DNA of 64,000 nucleotides from Escherichia phage vB_EcoM-G3F7: sequence record MZ234035.1; one strand, 5' to 3'. The notes beneath the pieces were generated by a model, which worked only from the letters and a program-made list of their open reading frames with translations, did no database searches and was not told the origin of the DNA. This document shows, piece after piece, positions 1 through 7,290 of the stretch. The position numbers were made by a program, and so were the translations under genes. Position 1 is the first letter of the stretch. Every line of letters begins with the position of its first letter.

Positions 1-969
1 ATGAAAACTGTAACTATCAATAAGGGTATCTACTTCGGTAAAGAAATCTCTGGAACTTTTGAGCTCTTAGGTGAATGGTTCCCAGATAATGCTCCGGTAG
101 ATGCACAAGGAGATGGTAAAGTTTTTGTTGAAATTGACGGTAAGCGTCGCGGTGTTTGGGTTTACAAATCAGACATTTCATATGATGGTGTAAAAGTTGA
201 AGAAGTTAAAGAATCATATGAAGATATGAAAACCCGCATTAATAAAAGATTTAATGTTATGGGAATGATGACGAATGGTATTATTAACGGAAACATTCGT
301 TCATTAATTATCTCTGGTGCGGCGGGTATTGGTAAAACGTATTCTTTAGATAAAGCTTTGAATAAAGCAAATGATAATGGATACATTGAATATAAAAGCA
401 TTAACGGTAAAATCTCCGGTATCGGTCTTTATGAACAACTTTGGAATAATCGTGAAGAGAATTCTGTCCTTTTGATTGATGATGTGGATGTTTTCTCTGA
501 TATGGACATTCTTAATCTTCTGAAAGCTGCTCTGGACACTGGAGAGACCCGTAAAGTCTGCTGGAGCACCGCATCTTCTTACTTAGAAGAAAAAGGCATT
601 GAGCGTGAGTTTGAATTTAAAGGAACGATTGTTTTTATCACAAACGTTGACATTGACCGCGAATTAGACCGTGGTACTAAACTTGCTCCACATTTACAAG
701 CATTAGTGTCCCGCTCGGTTTATTTGGATTTGGGTGTTCACACTAATGAAGAAATTATGGTCAGGGTTGAAGATGTTATTCTTTCAACTGACATGATGCA
801 AAAGCGCGGTCTTTCTGATGAAGAAACTTATAAAGCATTATCATGGATGAAAGTTAATGTTAATCGTTTACGCAATGTTTCACTGCGTACTGCTCTTTAT
901 CTTGCTGACTTTATTATGACCGACAAAAACGGTTGGGAAGAAATTGCTGAGGTTACTCTTCTGAAATAA
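1..969 (+). CDS. P-loop NTPase (AAA-like), nrdC.11-like early protein
   Basis: 322-aa ORF; Walker A GAAGIGKT and Walker B LLIDDVD motifs. Confidence 0.7.
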   Translation: MKTVTINKGIYFGKEISGTFELLGEWFPDNAPVDAQGDGKVFVEIDGKRRGVWVYKSDISYDGVKVEEVKESYEDMKTRINKRFNVMGMMTNGIINGNIRSLIISGAAGIGKTYSLDKALNKANDNGYIEYKSINGKISGIGLYEQLWNNREENSVLLIDDVDVFSDMDILNLLKAALDTGETRKVCWSTASSYLEEKGIEREFEFKGTIVFITNVDIDRELDRGTKLAPHLQALVSRSVYLDLGVHTNEEIMVRVEDVILSTDMMQKRGLSDEETYKALSWMKVNVNRLRNVSLRTALYLADFIMTDKNGWEEIAEVTLLK

Positions 970-1058
970 TTCATAAGAGGACTTCTATGACAAAAAGGCA
1001 GTTCAGAAATAGATTATATGGACTGCCATTAAAAAGATGACTAGAATTAAACTGGTGA

Positions 1059-1373
1059 ATGGAGGTAATGATGTTATACTCAAAGGCTCGTGAAATTTAC
1101 GAAACTAAAATTAAAGAAGCAGTATTTAAGTTCGCAACGACAATGCGATGGACAAATGACTGGGAGTATTCAAAAAATCATAAGAAGCCCATGGTGACAA
1201 GAAAGGCTCATATGTTAGTGTTAATAGACCGTGAGCAGATTAAAGCCCGAGAAGCCCTCCAGAATCATAAAAAGGCTGCCTTTGAATGGTTTATGGATAA
1301 CACTGCTCCTGAGACTAAGAAAGCGGTAAGCGCATGGTTCAGTGGAAAAAATTGTGAAAGAAGTTTCTTTTAG
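1059..1373 (+). CDS. hypothetical protein
   Basis: 104-aa ORF; GGAGG RBS precedes internal ATG at 1071, so true start may be 1071. Confidence 0.45.
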   Translation: MEVMMLYSKAREIYETKIKEAVFKFATTMRWTNDWEYSKNHKKPMVTRKAHMLVLIDREQIKAREALQNHKKAAFEWFMDNTAPETKKAVSAWFSGKNCERSFF

Positions 1374-1375
1374 TG

Positions 1376-1405
1376 GTTTACAAGACTGTTCCTCTGTGGT
1401 ACTAT
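1376..1405 (+). promoter_or_regulatory. T4-type early promoter
   Basis: GTTTAC, 18-nt spacer with TGG, TACTAT. Confidence 0.6.
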
Positions 1406-1433
1406 ACAACTATCAACTACGGAGGAACACAAA

Positions 1434-1961
1434 ATGAACGCTAAAGATATTTTCAACCTGGTAAATTACAACGATGGTAAATTTAAATCTGAAGCACAAA
1501 GTAAGTTCTTTAATGACATCTCAATCGAAGGTGAAATCACGGTTGACGGAGGACAAATTTACAAATCTCGTTGGAATTGGATCGTTATTATCGATGAGAT
1601 TGGTATTGTAGAAATTTACAAGAATACGAATAAAAATCGTACATTACACTGGTCTCGTGATACTAACGAACAGTACAAAAAGGATAAAGCATCTAAATTA
1701 TCTCGTGTAACTCAAGAAGATATTGAGTTCATCAAGAAAGATATTTTGATGTATGATAACTTAATTGCTGAAGAGCAAGCTGTTATTGATAAATTTGATG
1801 AGATTAAAGCTTCTCGTGAAATTCCTGATTTTATGAAAGAATCAGTAAATGAACGATACACTCTCATTTCAGAGCGTATTGAAACTTACAAAAAGCAAAG
1901 AGCTGAACGCCAGAATACTCTTCGGAAGTTTGAAGAACGGTTAAAGACGGTACTCGCATAA
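1434..1961 (+). CDS. hypothetical early protein
   Basis: 175-aa ORF immediately downstream of early promoter 1376-1405 and GGAGG RBS. Confidence 0.55.
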   Translation: MNAKDIFNLVNYNDGKFKSEAQSKFFNDISIEGEITVDGGQIYKSRWNWIVIIDEIGIVEIYKNTNKNRTLHWSRDTNEQYKKDKASKLSRVTQEDIEFIKKDILMYDNLIAEEQAVIDKFDEIKASREIPDFMKESVNERYTLISERIETYKKQRAERQNTLRKFEERLKTVLA

Positions 1962-1962
1962 C

Positions 1963-1987
1963 CGCTTTATACCAAGGATGGTATAAT
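1963..1987 (+). promoter_or_regulatory. MotA-box-like middle promoter
   Basis: CGCTTTA box, 11-12-nt spacer, TATAAT. Confidence 0.4.
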
Positions 1988-2016
1988 GGTTCTAAGCCCT
2001 TTTAATTGAGATTATT

Positions 2017-2424
2017 ATGAAACAGTTGATAATTAAAAGATTGAATTTATTGATATGTTGTTTATGTATAGCAATTGCATATGGTTATTACGCAATTAAT
2101 GATTATATGCATTATAAAGATTATGATGTTACTGTAGTTAATACCATTACAGGAACACAAGGAAAAGGGTCTAGTTTATCGTTTATTGCCGTATATGAAC
2201 TCAAAGATGGTTATAGATTTAGTGAATATATTTCCCCAGAGATGTATTCATCAATAGAAAAAGGTGATAATATTACTGTAAGTTTACGTCCTTTCGACGT
2301 AAAACAGACATTGTTTGATAATATTGTTTGGTTCTTTGGAATGGTATTAGTTCAATCTGTGTGTGGTGCTTATATAGTCTGTTCCATCTTATTCTGTATA
2401 TTTAGTAAAATTGAAATTGAGTGA
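2017..2424 (+). CDS. hypothetical membrane protein
   Basis: 135-aa ORF with hydrophobic Cys-rich segments at both ends. Confidence 0.5.
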   Translation: MKQLIIKRLNLLICCLCIAIAYGYYAINDYMHYKDYDVTVVNTITGTQGKGSSLSFIAVYELKDGYRFSEYISPEMYSSIEKGDNITVSLRPFDVKQTLFDNIVWFFGMVLVQSVCGAYIVCSILFCIFSKIEIE

Positions 2425-2431
2425 GGAAAAT

Positions 2432-3319
2432 ATGTCAGTAGTAATTAATAATGTCAATGCAGTAATTAAATCTTTAGTTAATAAAAAATTAAATGAATGG
2501 ACTGTACTTCGTCGTGGAGAGCCAGATAAATTTTTTCATAGATTTAACCCAACTTTGGATTTGAATGTTATTGACAGAGATGTTCATGCTGAAATTTTAG
2601 ATAAATTTAAAGTTGATATTGGGTTTGGGTTAGATAAACATTTGCAACGAACAAACGGATCTGGAATGGGTTTATCTAATCGCATCATGAAAGCCCTTAA
2701 TAAAATTGGAGCGTTGTCTCGTATTAATGCGAGTGAAATCCTTCGCAATTATAATAAAGGATATGACCTTTATGGTCGACTAATGCCGAAATTATCATTT
2801 GACCAAATGATTGCGGATTTGTGGGAAAATCAACGACGATTATTAGCATTAGGCGCTCGATTAGCTAAAGGTCTAGATAAACAAATGATTTTTAAGACCA
2901 ATAATACAGAAGACCTTAAATGCTTTAAATTTAGTACTCGTGGAGATGATTATTACATCAGAGCTCGCTCTACAGATTATGTTAATATGGGGCATCATCT
3001 CTGTTTAGCTTTTGAAGTTTTAAAAGAAGCCGGAACATTAGAATATGTGTCTGGTGCTAAATGTCCGATTGGTTCAAATTGCATTTTAATTTATCGCCCA
3101 GATGAATCCAGTTCAACTAAATTACCTACAAAACCTGTACCAGTTCGCAGTAATGAAAAACATTCTGAACAAATTGCTTATTTTAATAAGCAGATTGAAG
3201 AGCTAAATATTTCTATTCAGCAATATGATGATGAAATTTTCAGACTATCTGGATTGAGTAGTAAAGCTAAATCTGAGCGTGAAAAATTAATTAAAATCGT
3301 TGATTTACTTAAATCTTAA
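2432..3319 (+). CDS. hypothetical protein with C-terminal coiled coil (paralog A)
   Basis: ATG at 2432 after GAGGA RBS; C-terminal heptad-rich tail. Confidence 0.55.
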   Translation: MSVVINNVNAVIKSLVNKKLNEWTVLRRGEPDKFFHRFNPTLDLNVIDRDVHAEILDKFKVDIGFGLDKHLQRTNGSGMGLSNRIMKALNKIGALSRINASEILRNYNKGYDLYGRLMPKLSFDQMIADLWENQRRLLALGARLAKGLDKQMIFKTNNTEDLKCFKFSTRGDDYYIRARSTDYVNMGHHLCLAFEVLKEAGTLEYVSGAKCPIGSNCILIYRPDESSSTKLPTKPVPVRSNEKHSEQIAYFNKQIEELNISIQQYDDEIFRLSGLSSKAKSEREKLIKIVDLLKS

Positions 3320-3327
3320 GGAACACC

Positions 3328-4356
3328 ATGAAAACTCGTTCTCAAATTGAAGATATGGTTCGTAATGCCAGCTATACTCGTGATGTTATGACATTTTTGT
3401 GTGAAAATAATTTAGACCCTGATAAAGTTAATCGTGTTATTCATCACTTTAAGTATACGAATAGCAGTGAATGGGTGCGTAATTTTAGTAAAGCAGGGTA
3501 TATTACACAAATGACTGCTCGTGAACAGCTCACCGATTTCTGTAAAACTATTGATTATAAAAATCCTTTGATTGTTCAAGGCGTTGGTCAAAGTAAGGTC
3601 GATTTATCATCTGGATTTTTCAATCCAAATCATTATCGTATTGAATGGAGATTTATTGCTCTATTCCGTAAACAATTAAAGCAAATTTTGTCTACTGCTA
3701 GTCGATTAAAAGGCTCTGATATTAACTTAAAGAACCTGAAATTTGATGGTTATACTCTTCAGATGGAAGTAAGACCGTTAAAAGAAAATAATAGAACTGC
3801 ACGAATTAGCTTTAAGCCTAATACTAAAAATTCTCTTTCAATTTGTGAATGTCTTAAATCACAGCTGACAGAAGCATTTAAGTATATGGATGTTGTTGCT
3901 GCTGTTCAATCTAAGATTTTACCTCGTTTTGAGCGAAATTGGGAACATACAACAACATATGAACTTGATATGATCGTTTCATTTAAATATGAATTTTTGA
4001 GAAAGGATGAAATTGTTCAAGAGAAAAAGCAGGAAGTGCAAGATACCTTAAATTTAAATTTATCCAATTACTTATCAAACGATCCTAAATTTTGGATGTA
4101 TAGCTCAAGCAATATAGATGCATGTAAACTTAATAAAGTGAGTTTTCTTCCTACTGAAAATTCAAATTTTAAACCTGTAGAAAAATGGCACGCTGACGCG
4201 ATTGAGAAGTCTCTTAAGGCAGTAGATGATGAACTCGTTAAAGCGACCAATGAAGTGCTAGAAGCTGAAAAGGCGTTAGAACAAGCTCAGTCAAGGGTTC
4301 AAAATCTGACAAAGCAACGTTCTAAACTGAACAATGCACTAAATGCACTGAACTAG
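3328..4356 (+). CDS. hypothetical protein with C-terminal coiled coil (paralog B)
   Basis: 342-aa ORF; tail ...LEAEKALEQAQSRVQNLTKQRSKLNNALNALN; core resembles next two ORFs. Confidence 0.6.
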   Translation: MKTRSQIEDMVRNASYTRDVMTFLCENNLDPDKVNRVIHHFKYTNSSEWVRNFSKAGYITQMTAREQLTDFCKTIDYKNPLIVQGVGQSKVDLSSGFFNPNHYRIEWRFIALFRKQLKQILSTASRLKGSDINLKNLKFDGYTLQMEVRPLKENNRTARISFKPNTKNSLSICECLKSQLTEAFKYMDVVAAVQSKILPRFERNWEHTTTYELDMIVSFKYEFLRKDEIVQEKKQEVQDTLNLNLSNYLSNDPKFWMYSSSNIDACKLNKVSFLPTENSNFKPVEKWHADAIEKSLKAVDDELVKATNEVLEAEKALEQAQSRVQNLTKQRSKLNNALNALN

Positions 4357-4385
4357 TTTACTTTGCCACAAGGATGTGGTATAAT
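4356..4385 (+). promoter_or_regulatory. T4-type early promoter
   Basis: GTTTAC, 18-nt spacer, TATAAT. Confidence 0.6.
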
Positions 4386-4413
4386 GTTTTTACTTTCTAC
4401 TGAGGAGATTATT

Positions 4414-5415
4414 ATGACTCGTAACGAATATATCAAATCATTCAATAGCGTTATTGATGATAAAGCTATACCGATGTTTGGCCAAAATAGCGTTCTTTCT
4501 ATTATCAATCAATGGCTCAATAGTGTTGATGCAAGTATTGTTTCTTCTACTAAATTTATTCATGAAATTCGTAAAATTTCTAGCCGTGTAGATAAAGATG
4601 TTATCAAGAAAACCTTTAAAGAGTCTCGTCTTCTTTCATATTTGGTTAATCGGGATATTCTTGGTAATTTTGGGAAAGAAATTAAACGAACTAAAGATGT
4701 AGTAGGATACAATTGGTTCGGTGATGTTAATTCTTATCATCTTAATATTAAAGAAGACCCTGAGAATATTTTTACTCGTCGTTGGATCAGTAATTTCAGA
4801 CTTTTTAAGAAACAAATTCTAAAATCAGCTTCTAAATTATGTTATGGCGATTATCGTCAAATTCATCCTTTGGCTTCTGATATGATTATCATAAAAGAAT
4901 ATGAACTTGATAAAAATAAAGTATCTATTTTTGTGAATTATGGATTTTTTACACCAGAAACTAACCAAAAGAATATTAATAAATTTTTCTCAATTGCTAG
5001 CACTATAACTCGTCAATTAGAGACCGCATTACTTTGTATGGAAACAGTAGAAAATATTCATACATATCCTTTTAAGAATATATGCGGTTGGGAAGGATAT
5101 AAACTCGTAATTAGCCTTCGTGAAGTGAAATGTGCTTATTCACCTACTGATAAAGAAATTTACCAACAAAAATGTGATGAAATTGTGAATACTCCTAAAG
5201 AAGAAACTACCCTTGAGGAACTAATGGAATGTCTTGATGATTCACCTGAACCGATAGAAATTCGTCCAGAAGTTATTGCACTAGAAAAAGCTTATAAAGA
5301 AGTTCTAGAAATTTCTAATAAAGCGCAGAAAGAATATGAGCAGGCTAAAAGGATTTGGGAAGAATCTGTTAATCGTCTTGATCGTCTGGAACAAGCTTTA
5401 CAGTTAATTAAGTAA
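4414..5415 (+). CDS. hypothetical protein with C-terminal coiled coil (paralog C)
   Basis: ATG at 4414 after GAGGAG RBS; shares FKKQILKSASKL core with paralog B; heptad tail. Confidence 0.6.
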   Translation: MTRNEYIKSFNSVIDDKAIPMFGQNSVLSIINQWLNSVDASIVSSTKFIHEIRKISSRVDKDVIKKTFKESRLLSYLVNRDILGNFGKEIKRTKDVVGYNWFGDVNSYHLNIKEDPENIFTRRWISNFRLFKKQILKSASKLCYGDYRQIHPLASDMIIIKEYELDKNKVSIFVNYGFFTPETNQKNINKFFSIASTITRQLETALLCMETVENIHTYPFKNICGWEGYKLVISLREVKCAYSPTDKEIYQQKCDEIVNTPKEETTLEELMECLDDSPEPIEIRPEVIALEKAYKEVLEISNKAQKEYEQAKRIWEESVNRLDRLEQALQLIK

Positions 5416-5467
5416 TTTAAAGCCAAGGATGGCTCGGAGTATAAATCATTAACCAAGTGAGAAGAAC

Positions 5468-6394
5468 ATGAAAACTCGTAAACATTATATTGATTATTTT
5501 GACAGTCTTATTACTAAACATCGTAATTATCAGATAGGACACAGAGCAGTAATCAATAATATTCTTCGTGATTTTTTAGACTATATTGGATGGGAAAACC
5601 ATATTTGTAAAGATACACAAAATGCGTATTCACATTCTCTTGGTTCTTTGCTCGAGTGGTTCAAACGTTCCCGATTACTATCTTCTGTGATAGCTGTTAA
5701 TAATGTTAAAAAATTTATGTATCCAAGCTACATTGAGACTAATGTATCAAATGCTAGTGTTGTTACATTTAATATTATTAACGACGTGAAAAGAACTTAT
5801 TTAGAAGAATGGTTTTCTAAAGATAGTAAAGAAAAATTTGCTAGTGAATTTTCACACGAATTCAATAATAACGTGAATATGCTTTTTAAGCATTCTCGTA
5901 GACTGTTTTGTCATGGTGATAACCGTACTATTAATGTGAATGTAAAAGACTGGGTTACGGCTAAATTCACTCCATCGTCCCAGAATGGGCAATTTGAATT
6001 GTCAATTATCATTTGTGCTCCGCACGAGATATATAAAAACCTTCCGTATATGAAACCACGCGAAGCTAATAAACACAATGAAACTATTAGTTCTTTGGCT
6101 TATAATTTACGCGTGTTATTATCTGATATGGATGTAGTCAAATCCTTTGATGATAATACGAATTATGGTCTTTCGCTGTTTGAAACTAAATTTGTTATTA
6201 AATTAAAGGACCCTAGTGAATTTAAACCTACACCAAAATCCAATCATGGAAATGATACTATGAAAGAAGAACGCGAATATCTCAGTGCCCGTTTGATTGA
6301 AGTTGAAAAACAGATTGAAGAGCATACTAAAGTTCTTAAGGCTTTAACCGCCAAAGCAAATGGTTTACGTAATGCTATTGAGGTATTGAAATGA
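5468..6394 (+). CDS. hypothetical protein with C-terminal coiled coil (paralog D)
   Basis: 308-aa ORF; heptad tail ...[31 protein letters not shown]. Confidence 0.6.
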   Translation: MKTRKHYIDYFDSLITKHRNYQIGHRAVINNILRDFLDYIGWENHICKDTQNAYSHSLGSLLEWFKRSRLLSSVIAVNNVKKFMYPSYIETNVSNASVVTFNIINDVKRTYLEEWFSKDSKEKFASEFSHEFNNNVNMLFKHSRRLFCHGDNRTINVNVKDWVTAKFTPSSQNGQFELSIIICAPHEIYKNLPYMKPREANKHNETISSLAYNLRVLLSDMDVVKSFDDNTNYGLSLFETKFVIKLKDPSEFKPTPKSNHGNDTMKEEREYLSARLIEVEKQIEEHTKVLKALTAKANGLRNAIEVLK

Positions 6395-6780
6395 AAAAGC
6401 GTTTATTAGAAGACATTGCAGCTTCAAGTAATTCCAGTTTAATTAAAATTATTATGGCTGGTGAGGAAGATGATATGGAAATGCGTGGAAAGATTCACGG
6501 CTGCGACGATTTAGATTTTAAACCTCCAGCATGGGATGCTATTATGGCTATGGTTGAACGACGTGAAAGAGCTTCTAAAAACGTTCCTAATTGCCCTGAA
6601 TGCGGTACTGAACAAGTTCAATTGATTAACTGGCGTAAACCAGAGCTTGAATATAAATGCCGTCAATGTAAACATAAATTCAGTAAGCATGCTCCGGAAA
6701 TGGTTAAATTGCCTGACTCTACTGAGTTCTTTAAAGAACTTGTGAGTGTTCAACCAATGCCTAATAATATTTTGGATTAA
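6391..6780 (+). CDS. hypothetical zinc-ribbon protein
   Basis: 129-aa ORF; CPECG...CRQC motif; ATGA start/stop overlap with upstream ORF. Confidence 0.55.
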
Positions 6781-6782
6781 AA

Positions 6783-7025
6783 ATGACCAAGCGTAAAGAA
6801 TATATGGAGGCTGCTGAAAAGGCAGTCCGTGAATTAGCAATAGCTTATTATAATGAACATGGTAAATTTCCTGATAGATACAGCGTGCTTAAATCTGCTT
6901 TAACTCGTTCATATAAAAATATGCTATCAGAAGTAAGTGATATTATATACAAACATAAAGAACAAACGGGCCAAAGTCTTGATTACGACGAGACTTTTAA
7001 ACAAGTACTAGGAATTAAGGAATAA
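6783..7025 (+). CDS. hypothetical protein
   Basis: 80-aa ORF tightly packed between neighbours. Confidence 0.5.
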
Positions 7026-7026
7026 T

Positions 7027-7290
7027 ATGTTTAAAGTATATGGTTATGATAGCAACATTCATAAATGTGTGTATTGCGATAATGCAAAACGTCTTTTGAC
7101 CGTGAAGAAACAGCCGTTTGAATTTATCAACATTATGCCGGAAAAAGGTGTTTTTGATGATGAGAAAATTGCTGAGCTTCTGACTAAACTAGGTCGTGAT
7201 ACTCAAATCGGCTTGACAATGCCCCAGGTATTTGCTCCTGATGGAAGTCATATTGGTGGATTTGACCAACTGCGAGAATATTTTAAATGA
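7027..7290 (+). CDS. nrdC: thioredoxin/glutaredoxin NrdC
   Basis: 87 aa; CVYC redox motif; matches T4 NrdC length and sequence as recalled. Confidence 0.85.
   Translation: MFKVYGYDSNIHKCVYCDNAKRLLTVKKQPFEFINIMPEKGVFDDEKIAELLTKLGRDTQIGLTMPQVFAPDGSHIGGFDQLREYFK

Follow-up and report, generated by a model that had tools for sequence, protein, structure and literature searches.

Bacteriophage T4 is the best-studied phage, and about half of its genes are of no known function. One uncharacterised early gene, nrdC.5, has been connected with Dsr1, a SIR2-domain defence protein: once a T4 clone had lost nrdC.5, neither ECOR17 nor MG1655 with the dsr1 gene of ECOR17 supported its plating, and nrdC.5 supplied on a plasmid restores plating of nrdC.5-deleted T4 on the dsr1-carrying MG1655 (Srikant, Guegler and Laub, eLife 2022; PMC9391042). 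That study treats nrdC.5 as a single gene and mentions no paralogues, domain structure or mechanism. In a genome-reduction study nrdC.1–6 appear in the list of large fragments that viable T4 mutants have lost (PMC9825161). Here we analyse a 64,000-nucleotide (nt) stretch of Escherichia phage vB_EcoM-G3F7 (MZ234035.1), referred to as the window, in which the nrdC.5 orthologue stands in a tandem array of four genes, nrdC.6, nrdC.5, nrdC.4 and nrdC.3 (positions 2432–6394). The genes have long been known, and the new element is that all four are brought together in one superfamily with a common head and coiled-coil tail. With modest confidence we propose that the four paralogues form a family of counter-defence binders that act stoichiometrically, by means of variable heads and oligomerising tails.

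The phage belongs to the genus Tequatrovirus; the first 9 kb of the window are 100% identical to Escherichia phage vB_EcoM-CHD94UKE2 and 95–99% identical to many Tequatrovirus genomes, and gene names were transferred to the window via the annotated AR1 and T4 records. An earlier note, made from the window's letters, had described four consecutive open reading frames (ORFs) of about 295–342 amino acids (aa) and proposed a comparison with the T4 nrdC.x ORFs. Both points hold: the four ORFs, all on the plus strand, encode proteins of 295, 342, 333 and 308 aa and are T4 nrdC.6,.5,.4 and.3 respectively (92–99% identity). The ATG starts chosen have a good Shine-Dalgarno sequence at each gene, and the 333 aa of nrdC.4 are counted from an ATG with a GAGGAG ribosome-binding site, the reading frame being 350 aa from an upstream TTG. 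The ORF at nrdC.5 is the orthologue of the published T4 gene, with the same position and the same Pfam family, DUF7235, although the allele differs from T4 NrdC.5 at about 6% of residues.

The four proteins are built alike: a basic alpha/beta head of some 230 aa is joined by a disordered linker (19–60 aa, with Pro) to a C-terminal coiled coil. For the tails we took the last 49 residues of each protein, counted L, I, V, M, F, Y, W or A at the a and d positions of the heptad, and compared the count with 5000 shuffles of the same tail; this a/d occupancy test replaced a cruder first heptad score, which did not discriminate. In one register per tail, 11–13 of the 14 a/d positions are hydrophobic as against 6–9 of the 35 other positions, an occupancy equalled by 0–13 of the 5000 shuffles, and no 49-residue window in the head of any of the four proteins scores as high. 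The heptad repeat runs unbroken for 44–52 residues (6–7 heptads) to the C-terminus of each protein, with a register that is the same in all four when counted from that end, and with a common ending, R-x-x-L-x-x-A-[LI]-x-x-L-K. In the AlphaFold models of nrdC.4 and nrdC.5 the tail is one long helix (limits in Table 1) preceded by a low-confidence linker, and the heptad test and model helices together confirm what had been noticed at first sight, a heptad-rich coiled-coil segment of about 50 residues in every ORF. Aligned alone with hhalign, the nrdC.5 and nrdC.3 tails match with an expect value (E) of 1.4e-4, and a hidden Markov model (HMM) of the tail matches, among all 378 window ORFs of at least 50 aa, only the four array proteins, all of which were in its training set.

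In the head, a helical bundle at the N-terminus leads into alpha/beta elements in a hairpin-helix-hairpin arrangement, and all four heads are basic (pI 9.1–9.4, net charge +6 to +10). A merged MAFFT alignment of the families contains three collinear motifs present in all four proteins (Table 1). The second is the basic core that the earlier note had picked out; it is real, clear in nrdC.5 (FRKQLKQILSTASRL) and nrdC.4 (FRLFKKQILKSASKL) and degenerate in nrdC.3 (FNNNVNMLFKHSRRL) and nrdC.6 (LWENQRRLLALGARL). A nearly invariant Pro precedes the tail in this alignment, and nrdC.5, nrdC.4 and nrdC.3 have in common an N-terminal start, MKTR/MTR. The AlphaFold2 model of nrdC.4, built without nrdC.5 or nrdC.6 sequences, has a predicted local distance difference test (pLDDT) score of 82 and a predicted TM-score (pTM) of 0.66, while that of nrdC.5, built on the merged alignment with the other families, has a pLDDT of 72.6. 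The order of elements in the two models is the same. Five to six N-terminal helices and a hairpin or small sheet come first; next are the helix pair that contains motif 2, a hairpin and the long helix of motif 3, and a further hairpin leads into the linker and the tail helix. No relative of solved structure was found, either by Foldseek of the nrdC.4 model against the PDB (nothing at E <0.03) or by profile searches of PDB sequences.

That nrdC.4 and nrdC.3 are paralogues, and the closest pair in the array, is certain. Both match phrog_1435 over positions 1–334 of 334 (E 5.6e-168 and 6.4e-101 respectively), and intermediate sequences link them, since a Dhakavirus NrdC.4 (P0057) matches nrdC.3 at 3e-11 and the NrdC.3 of RB69 matches nrdC.4 at 8e-6. 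The pairwise similarity by which the earlier note's proposal was to be judged is found directly, by BLASTP among the four ORFs, for this pair (E 0.002) but not for the others, which needed profiles and structure. For profile comparison the family alignments were enlarged with orthologues from Mosigvirus, Gaprivervirus, Dhakavirus and Kagamiyamavirus, and one protein, P0119, a deletion fusion of nrdC.5 with nrdC.3, was removed from those used for hhalign. Local alignment of the heads alone, with the tails cut, gives E 6e-14 for nrdC.4–nrdC.3 over 214 columns (range 6e-14 to 1e-13), 1.7e-4 for nrdC.5–nrdC.4 and 5e-4 for nrdC.6–nrdC.5 (range 3–5e-4); nrdC.5–nrdC.3 reaches 6e-5 with full-length alignments and 0.0098 with heads alone, and nrdC.6 is not significantly matched to nrdC.4 or nrdC.3. 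The aligned ranges are collinear and transitively consistent.

Searches of the 378 ORFs with HMMs from which one family at a time had been left out always returned the omitted protein as the top remaining match, with E of 1e-14 for nrdC.4, 2.5e-12 for nrdC.3, 2.5e-4 for nrdC.5 and 1.5e-3 for nrdC.6. With head-only profiles the omitted protein is again first each time (1.4e-14, 2.5e-12, 0.031 and 0.0027 in the same order). In Foldseek searches the nrdC.4 model matches the NrdC.6 of phage JS10 (E 1.2e-5 over 341 columns) as well as a 308-aa protein of Yersinia phage fPS-65, which we take to be NrdC.3 by its length and 19% identity, and the nrdC.4 and nrdC.5 models match the same uncharacterised BFVD proteins of 310–375 aa (E 1e-8 to 1e-4) from phages Cronus, Mineola, fHyAci03, fHe-Yen9-01, CBH8 and PS2. 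With the tails excluded, a homologous head is thus found in all four proteins by head-only hhalign, by the leave-one-out HMMs and by the matches of the nrdC.4 model. It is likely that nrdC.5 and nrdC.6 are paralogous with nrdC.4 and nrdC.3, and very probable that all four are paralogues of one superfamily, of which nrdC.6 is the most diverged member; nrdC.6 and nrdC.5 are tied to it less strongly than nrdC.4 and nrdC.3 are to each other. The PHROGs, hhalign, leave-one-out, motif and model results bear out the suggestion, made earlier from the sequence, that one module has duplicated and diverged. The duplications appear to be old, since comparison of the paralogues at the DNA level returns only chance-level matches of 19–28 nt, and there is no fifth array member among the 378 window ORFs.

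The evolutionary behaviour of the array differs from that of its neighbours. Among the fetched loci, the number of array members varies between genera from 0–1 to 4: there are four in Tequatrovirus, three in Mosigvirus (nrdC.6,.5 and.3) and in Gaprivervirus and Dhakavirus (nrdC.6,.5 and.4), one each in Kagamiyamavirus (EcS1) and Jiaodavirus (JD18), and none at E ≤0.01 in Karamvirus (PG7). Between genera the array proteins are 21–55% identical, compared with 74–79% in the same genera for nrdC.10, a P-loop protein encoded upstream. Within Tequatrovirus the ratio of nonsynonymous to synonymous substitution rates (dN/dS) is 0.14–0.33 for nrdC.5, nrdC.4 and nrdC.3 and 0.06–0.14 for nrdC.6, and 0.00–0.10 for the comparison genes nrdC.10, nrdC.8 and gp49. 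The array evolves much faster than its neighbours. In most comparisons between genera it is the head that diverges faster than the tail: tail and head identities are 59–69% and 32–40% for nrdC.6, 60–65% and 36–48% for nrdC.4, and 73–80% and 55–59% for nrdC.3, nrdC.5 being mixed in this respect.

There are two deep alleles of nrdC.3 in Tequatrovirus, about 60% identical, and the HY01-type gene (locus L005, 6501–7430) is a mosaic with a T4-type N-terminus of about 45 aa and a remainder about 90% identical to the protein of Mosigvirus RB69. The adjoining gene nrdC.2 also has deep alleles (synonymous divergence, dS, about 1) and encodes 129 aa here compared with 104 aa in T4; together with the nrdC.3 alleles and mosaic, this suggests a recombination hot spot. 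A protein found on three contigs, one of them 167 kb, the P0119 mentioned above, joins NrdC.5 residues 146–274 in frame to NrdC.3 from residue 134 to the end, a natural deletion that removes nrdC.4 and has its junction at non-equivalent positions of the two paralogues. Two reference genomes carry frameshifted copies. In T4 (AF158101.6, about 4235–4300, corresponding to about 3205 in the window) nrdC.6 lacks 1 nt immediately ahead of the tail, so that the annotated 275-aa product has no coiled coil, the tail being readable in another frame, and in RB69 nrdC.5 (about 6190–6375) is frameshifted relative to Mosigvirus LF82-41. These frameshifts are either laboratory-strain decay or old sequencing errors, and they matter for tests of function in these strains.

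The nrdC.5 phenotype, the dispensability of nrdC.1–6 and an evolutionary pattern resembling an arms race (copy number, divergence, dN/dS, mosaic and frameshifts) point to an anti-defence role for the array. Across the four families no column of the merged alignment is invariant, and those that come close to it hold three Leu (two of them in the head region and tail), one Ala and one Pro but no polar residue; Pfam, NCBIfam and PADLOC give no enzymatic domain. These features argue for binding rather than catalysis, and the basic heads argue that the proteins are not acidic DNA mimics. We therefore favour, as somewhat the better-founded account, a family of counter-defence binders, in which the array proteins would be non-essential early accessory proteins that act stoichiometrically, not enzymatically. 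What the variable head would bind and neutralise is a protein with which the host defends itself against phages, or the sensing step of that protein; for the NrdC.5 head the target is presumably Dsr1 itself, by direct binding. The more conserved coiled-coil tail with its flexible linker may oligomerise the protein, which would give avidity against oligomeric targets. At 94% identity to the T4 copy, the nrdC.5 product of the window would be expected to counter Dsr1 likewise, and from their paralogy and evolutionary behaviour nrdC.6, nrdC.4 and nrdC.3 may target other defence proteins or variants. Searches of the literature on nrdC.3,.4 and.6–.11, DUF7235 and Dsr1 counter-defence found nothing on mechanism or paralogy, no function for nrdC.3, nrdC.4 or nrdC.6, and no report of direct NrdC.5–Dsr1 binding or inhibition.

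Several points weigh against this account. A phenotype exists for only one of the four array genes, nrdC.5, and the published experiment is one of rescue, not of NrdC.5–Dsr1 binding, so that an indirect effect is possible (PMC9391042). The dN/dS values, being well below 1, fit relaxed constraint as well as an arms race, and nucleic-acid binding is another role for which basic heads would be suitable. What ties nrdC.6 and nrdC.5 to the superfamily is sequence statistics of marginal strength (P about 1e-4 to 3e-3) together with predicted structures. The Foldseek TM-scores are modest (0.3–0.5), presumably because the orientation of the tail is free or arbitrary, and the resemblance of the nrdC.5 model to that of nrdC.4 is not fully independent because the merged alignment held the other families. 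Finally, many d positions of the tails are Ala, which makes a simple parallel dimer uncertain.

Of the alternatives, the one that survives best, which we nevertheless consider rather unlikely, is that the four proteins are true paralogues but serve to bind nucleic acid or to take over the host, interacting with phage DNA or RNA or with a host factor. NrdC.5 would then overcome Dsr1 indirectly, by hiding or removing its activator, and the other three would have housekeeping-like accessory roles. The charge of the heads, unlike that of acidic DNA-mimic inhibitors, the dN/dS below 1 and an experiment confined to rescue are all compatible with this, but no recognisable DNA- or RNA-binding domain is found in Pfam, NCBIfam or PHROGs, the Foldseek search of the PDB is equally silent at E <0.03, and the genes are dispensable in the laboratory (PMC9825161). 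Moreover, rapid divergence of the heads, variation in copy number and the swapping of alleles are more readily understood if the target is a protein that changes than if it is a nucleic-acid ligand that stays the same.

A more elaborate form of the counter-defence proposal is that the array is a modular, multivalent device whose tails assemble homo- or hetero-oligomers carrying up to four fast-evolving heads, the alpha/beta part of the head mimicking a late virion protein; we regard this as quite unlikely. The mimic would be an early decoy with the fold of a tail-terminator or tail-completion protein of the gpU type, occupying the sensor domains of defence proteins such as those of the SIR2-type DSR class, and this detail is similarly doubtful. 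What support there is for mimicry comes from recurrent, sub-significant Foldseek matches of both models to phage proteins over 85–135 aligned columns (BFVD E 0.004–0.06, probability 0.9–0.99), some of which are named tail completion, tail terminator or minor tail protein; against lambda gpU in the PDB the nrdC.4 model gives E 0.4.

Less probable still, in our judgement very improbable, is that only nrdC.4 and nrdC.3 are related, and that nrdC.5 and nrdC.6 have merely converged on a C-terminal coiled coil and a similar composition. BLASTP is not significant for any pair that includes nrdC.6 or nrdC.5, the hhalign probabilities are low to moderate (0.2–65%) with both comparisons of nrdC.6 to nrdC.4 and nrdC.3 falling short, and Pfam and PHROGs keep the families apart (DUF7235, PF26897, PF26899, phrog_2257, phrog_2351). 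Convergent tails would not, however, account for the alignments of nrdC.5–nrdC.4 and nrdC.6–nrdC.5, which remain significant and collinear with the tails removed, nor for the first rank of the omitted protein in every leave-one-out search, head-only profiles included, nor for the match of some 340 columns to JS10 NrdC.6 by a model made without nrdC.6 or nrdC.5 sequences. In addition, a profile of all four families retrieves from 1.84 billion cluster representatives (clusters at 50% identity) 35 matches at E ≤0.001 which, with one exception, are family-like proteins of 280–365 aa or their fragments, nearly all aligned end to end.

The matches that could be traced come from Tevenvirinae whose hosts are Klebsiella, Enterobacter, Edwardsiella, Kosakonia and Pectobacterium; where the locus was examined, they sit at the equivalent place among the early genes, close to nrdC.2, nrdC and gene 49. 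Foldseek extends the range to T4-like phages of Erwinia, Serratia, Yersinia, Acinetobacter and Aeromonas, and further tandem pairs may exist, as E5E4A1 and E5E4A2 of Acj61 suggest; searches of IMG/VR for related loci returned 5 and 13, nearly all of genera already sampled. The superfamily of head-plus-tail proteins is thus small and confined to T4-like phages. By the Pfam definition only nrdC.5 is a member of DUF7235 (PF23882; 405.6 bits against a gathering threshold of 30, model positions 1–307 of 307); nrdC.3 scores 11.4 bits through its tail only, and nrdC.6 and nrdC.4 have no match to it. The nrdC.6 protein falls in phrog_2257 (E 3e-152), PF26899 is found in its homologues and PF26897 in those of nrdC.4, and beyond such families of unknown function Pfam, NCBIfam and PADLOC give no informative domain for the array proteins. 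By exact sequence, the 333-aa NrdC.4 of the window is filed in a 90%-identity cluster with an NrdC.5-type representative (P0091), which looks like a clustering artefact.

The earlier note had also pointed to a Walker A/B ATPase at 1–969, just upstream, and so implied a link between it and the array. Both motifs are present in nrdC.10 (GAAGIGKT at aa 106–113 and VLLIDDVD at aa 156–163), with Pfam matches to nSTAND3, AAA_16, AAA_14 and AAA_22 at E 1e-4 to 3e-4, all below gathering scores, but the adjacency is not, as 1.46 kb and three ORFs (nrdC.9,.8 and.7) lie between. That the array and this nucleoside triphosphatase constitute one ATP-driven system deserves almost no credence: nrdC.10 has the Walker motifs, shares its strand and early gene block with the array and accompanies it in loci of Tequatrovirus, Mosigvirus and Dhakavirus, yet the ORFs between are unrelated (with segE in addition in AR1), nrdC.10 is highly conserved across genera where the array is not, Karamvirus PG7 keeps it with no array member detected and JD18 and EcS1 with one, the fetched loci of Gaprivervirus VR7 and CJ20 keep three array members with nrdC.10 not found, and plasmid-expressed nrdC.5 alone rescued the deletion phage (PMC9391042). 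On synteny and conservation we rejected nrdC.10 as a part of the array, to which it is probably unrelated.

Among the other features of the region (Table 1), nrdC.8 also ends in a heptad-like helix (...KKQRAERQNTLRKFEERLKTVLA) but is not matched by the HMM of the tail or by that of the superfamily. In phage AR1 the homing-endonuclease gene segE is situated between nrdC.10 and nrdC.9 (locus L002, 1839–2336), whereas the window (969–1059) is without it. The 57-nt gap between nrdC.5 and nrdC.4 contains a promoter-like site (4357–4385; TTTACT, 17 nt, TG-TATAAT) that overlaps a 7-bp stem-loop (4364–4381) and, judged by its sequence, could serve nrdC.4 and nrdC.3 as an internal early promoter. In many GenBank and UniProt records every nrdC.x ORF (window 1–7025) bears the label "thioredoxin". 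For the array this widespread annotation is wrong: none of the four proteins has a thioredoxin or glutaredoxin match in Pfam or NCBIfam, and the modelled fold of helical bundle, alpha/beta elements and long helix contradicts the name. Since nrdC.10 has no thioredoxin-domain match in these databases either, the label on all five proteins has evidently been propagated from the gene label nrdC.x. One T6 RefSeq record names nrdC.5 "tail sheath stabilizer and completion protein".

Table 1. Coordinates of the array genes, their motifs and tails, and the neighbouring genes in the window
Feature	Position	Strand	Basis
nrdC.6 orthologue (ORF A), 295 aa	2432–3319	+	97% identity to T4 NrdC.6 over 259 aa
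nrdC.5 orthologue (ORF B), 342 aa	3328–4356	+	93.9% identity to T4 NrdC.5, full length, same genomic position
nrdC.4 orthologue (ORF C), 333 aa	4414–5415	+	99.1% identity to T4 NrdC.4
nrdC.3 orthologue (ORF D), 308 aa	5468–6394	+	92.2% identity to T4 NrdC.3
Motif 1	2696–2758 (nrdC.6), 3484–3546 (nrdC.5), 4615–4677 (nrdC.4), 5660–5716 (nrdC.3)	+	merged MAFFT alignment
Motif 2, basic core, EWRFIALFRKQLKQILSTASRLKGSD in nrdC.5	3643–3720 (nrdC.5)	+	merged MAFFT alignment
Motif 2 counterparts	2798–2878 (nrdC.6), 4777–4851 (nrdC.4), 5843–5920 (nrdC.3)	+	merged MAFFT alignment
Motif 3	2990–3034 (nrdC.6), 3853–3897 (nrdC.5), 5008–5049 (nrdC.4), 6098–6139 (nrdC.3)	+	merged MAFFT alignment
nrdC.6 coiled-coil tail, aa 247–295	3170–3316	+	12/14 a/d hydrophobic; 2/5000 shuffles
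nrdC.5 coiled-coil tail, aa 291–342	4198–4353	+	13/14 a/d hydrophobic; 0/5000 shuffles; model helix 286–341
nrdC.4 coiled-coil tail, aa 285–333	5266–5412	+	12/14 a/d hydrophobic; 7/5000 shuffles; model helix 285–332
nrdC.3 coiled-coil tail, aa 265–308	6260–6391	+	11/14 a/d hydrophobic; 13/5000 shuffles
nrdC.10, P-loop protein	1–969	+	AR1/T4 mapping
nrdC.9	1059–1373		AR1/T4 mapping
nrdC.8, 175 aa	1434–1961		AR1/T4 mapping
nrdC.7, predicted membrane protein in T4 annotation	2017–2424		AR1/T4 mapping
nrdC.2	6391–6780		AR1/T4 mapping
nrdC.1	6783–7025		AR1/T4 mapping
nrdC, thioredoxin	7027–7290		AR1/T4 mapping

If the binder hypothesis is right, the closest analogue in mode of action would be DSAD1, an inhibitor from SPbeta-like phages that reportedly binds and neutralises DSR2, a SIR2-domain defence protein that depletes NAD+. 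We detect no sequence or structural relationship between DSAD1 and the array proteins and do not claim membership, and to our knowledge DSAD1 neither belongs to an array of paralogues nor carries a coiled-coil stalk. In the databases, and in the literature searched, the array proteins are separate families of unknown function, with only nrdC.4 and nrdC.3 merged (in phrog_1435), and each existing family (DUF7235, PF26897, PF26899 and PHROGs 2351, 1435 and 2257) covers one or two of the four, whereas here all four are joined. This unification predicts that nrdC.6, nrdC.4 and nrdC.3 are further counter-defence genes, and their paralogy with the anti-Dsr1 gene nrdC.5, if true, makes them three concrete candidates in T4-like phages. 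The shared head-plus-tail plan offers a handle for finding the targets of the superfamily, and the combination of a conserved coiled-coil tail with a variable head, whose fold has no solved counterpart, suggests a way in which a single scaffold might be re-targeted during an arms race. Within T4 the array resembles dmd, tifA and adfA of the "anti-TA island" and ipI–III (PMC9391042) in being non-essential, early, host-range-determining, fast-evolving and lost in laboratory evolution. These genes, however, encode unrelated small proteins, whereas the array consists of four paralogues of about 300 aa with one fold and a coiled-coil tail.

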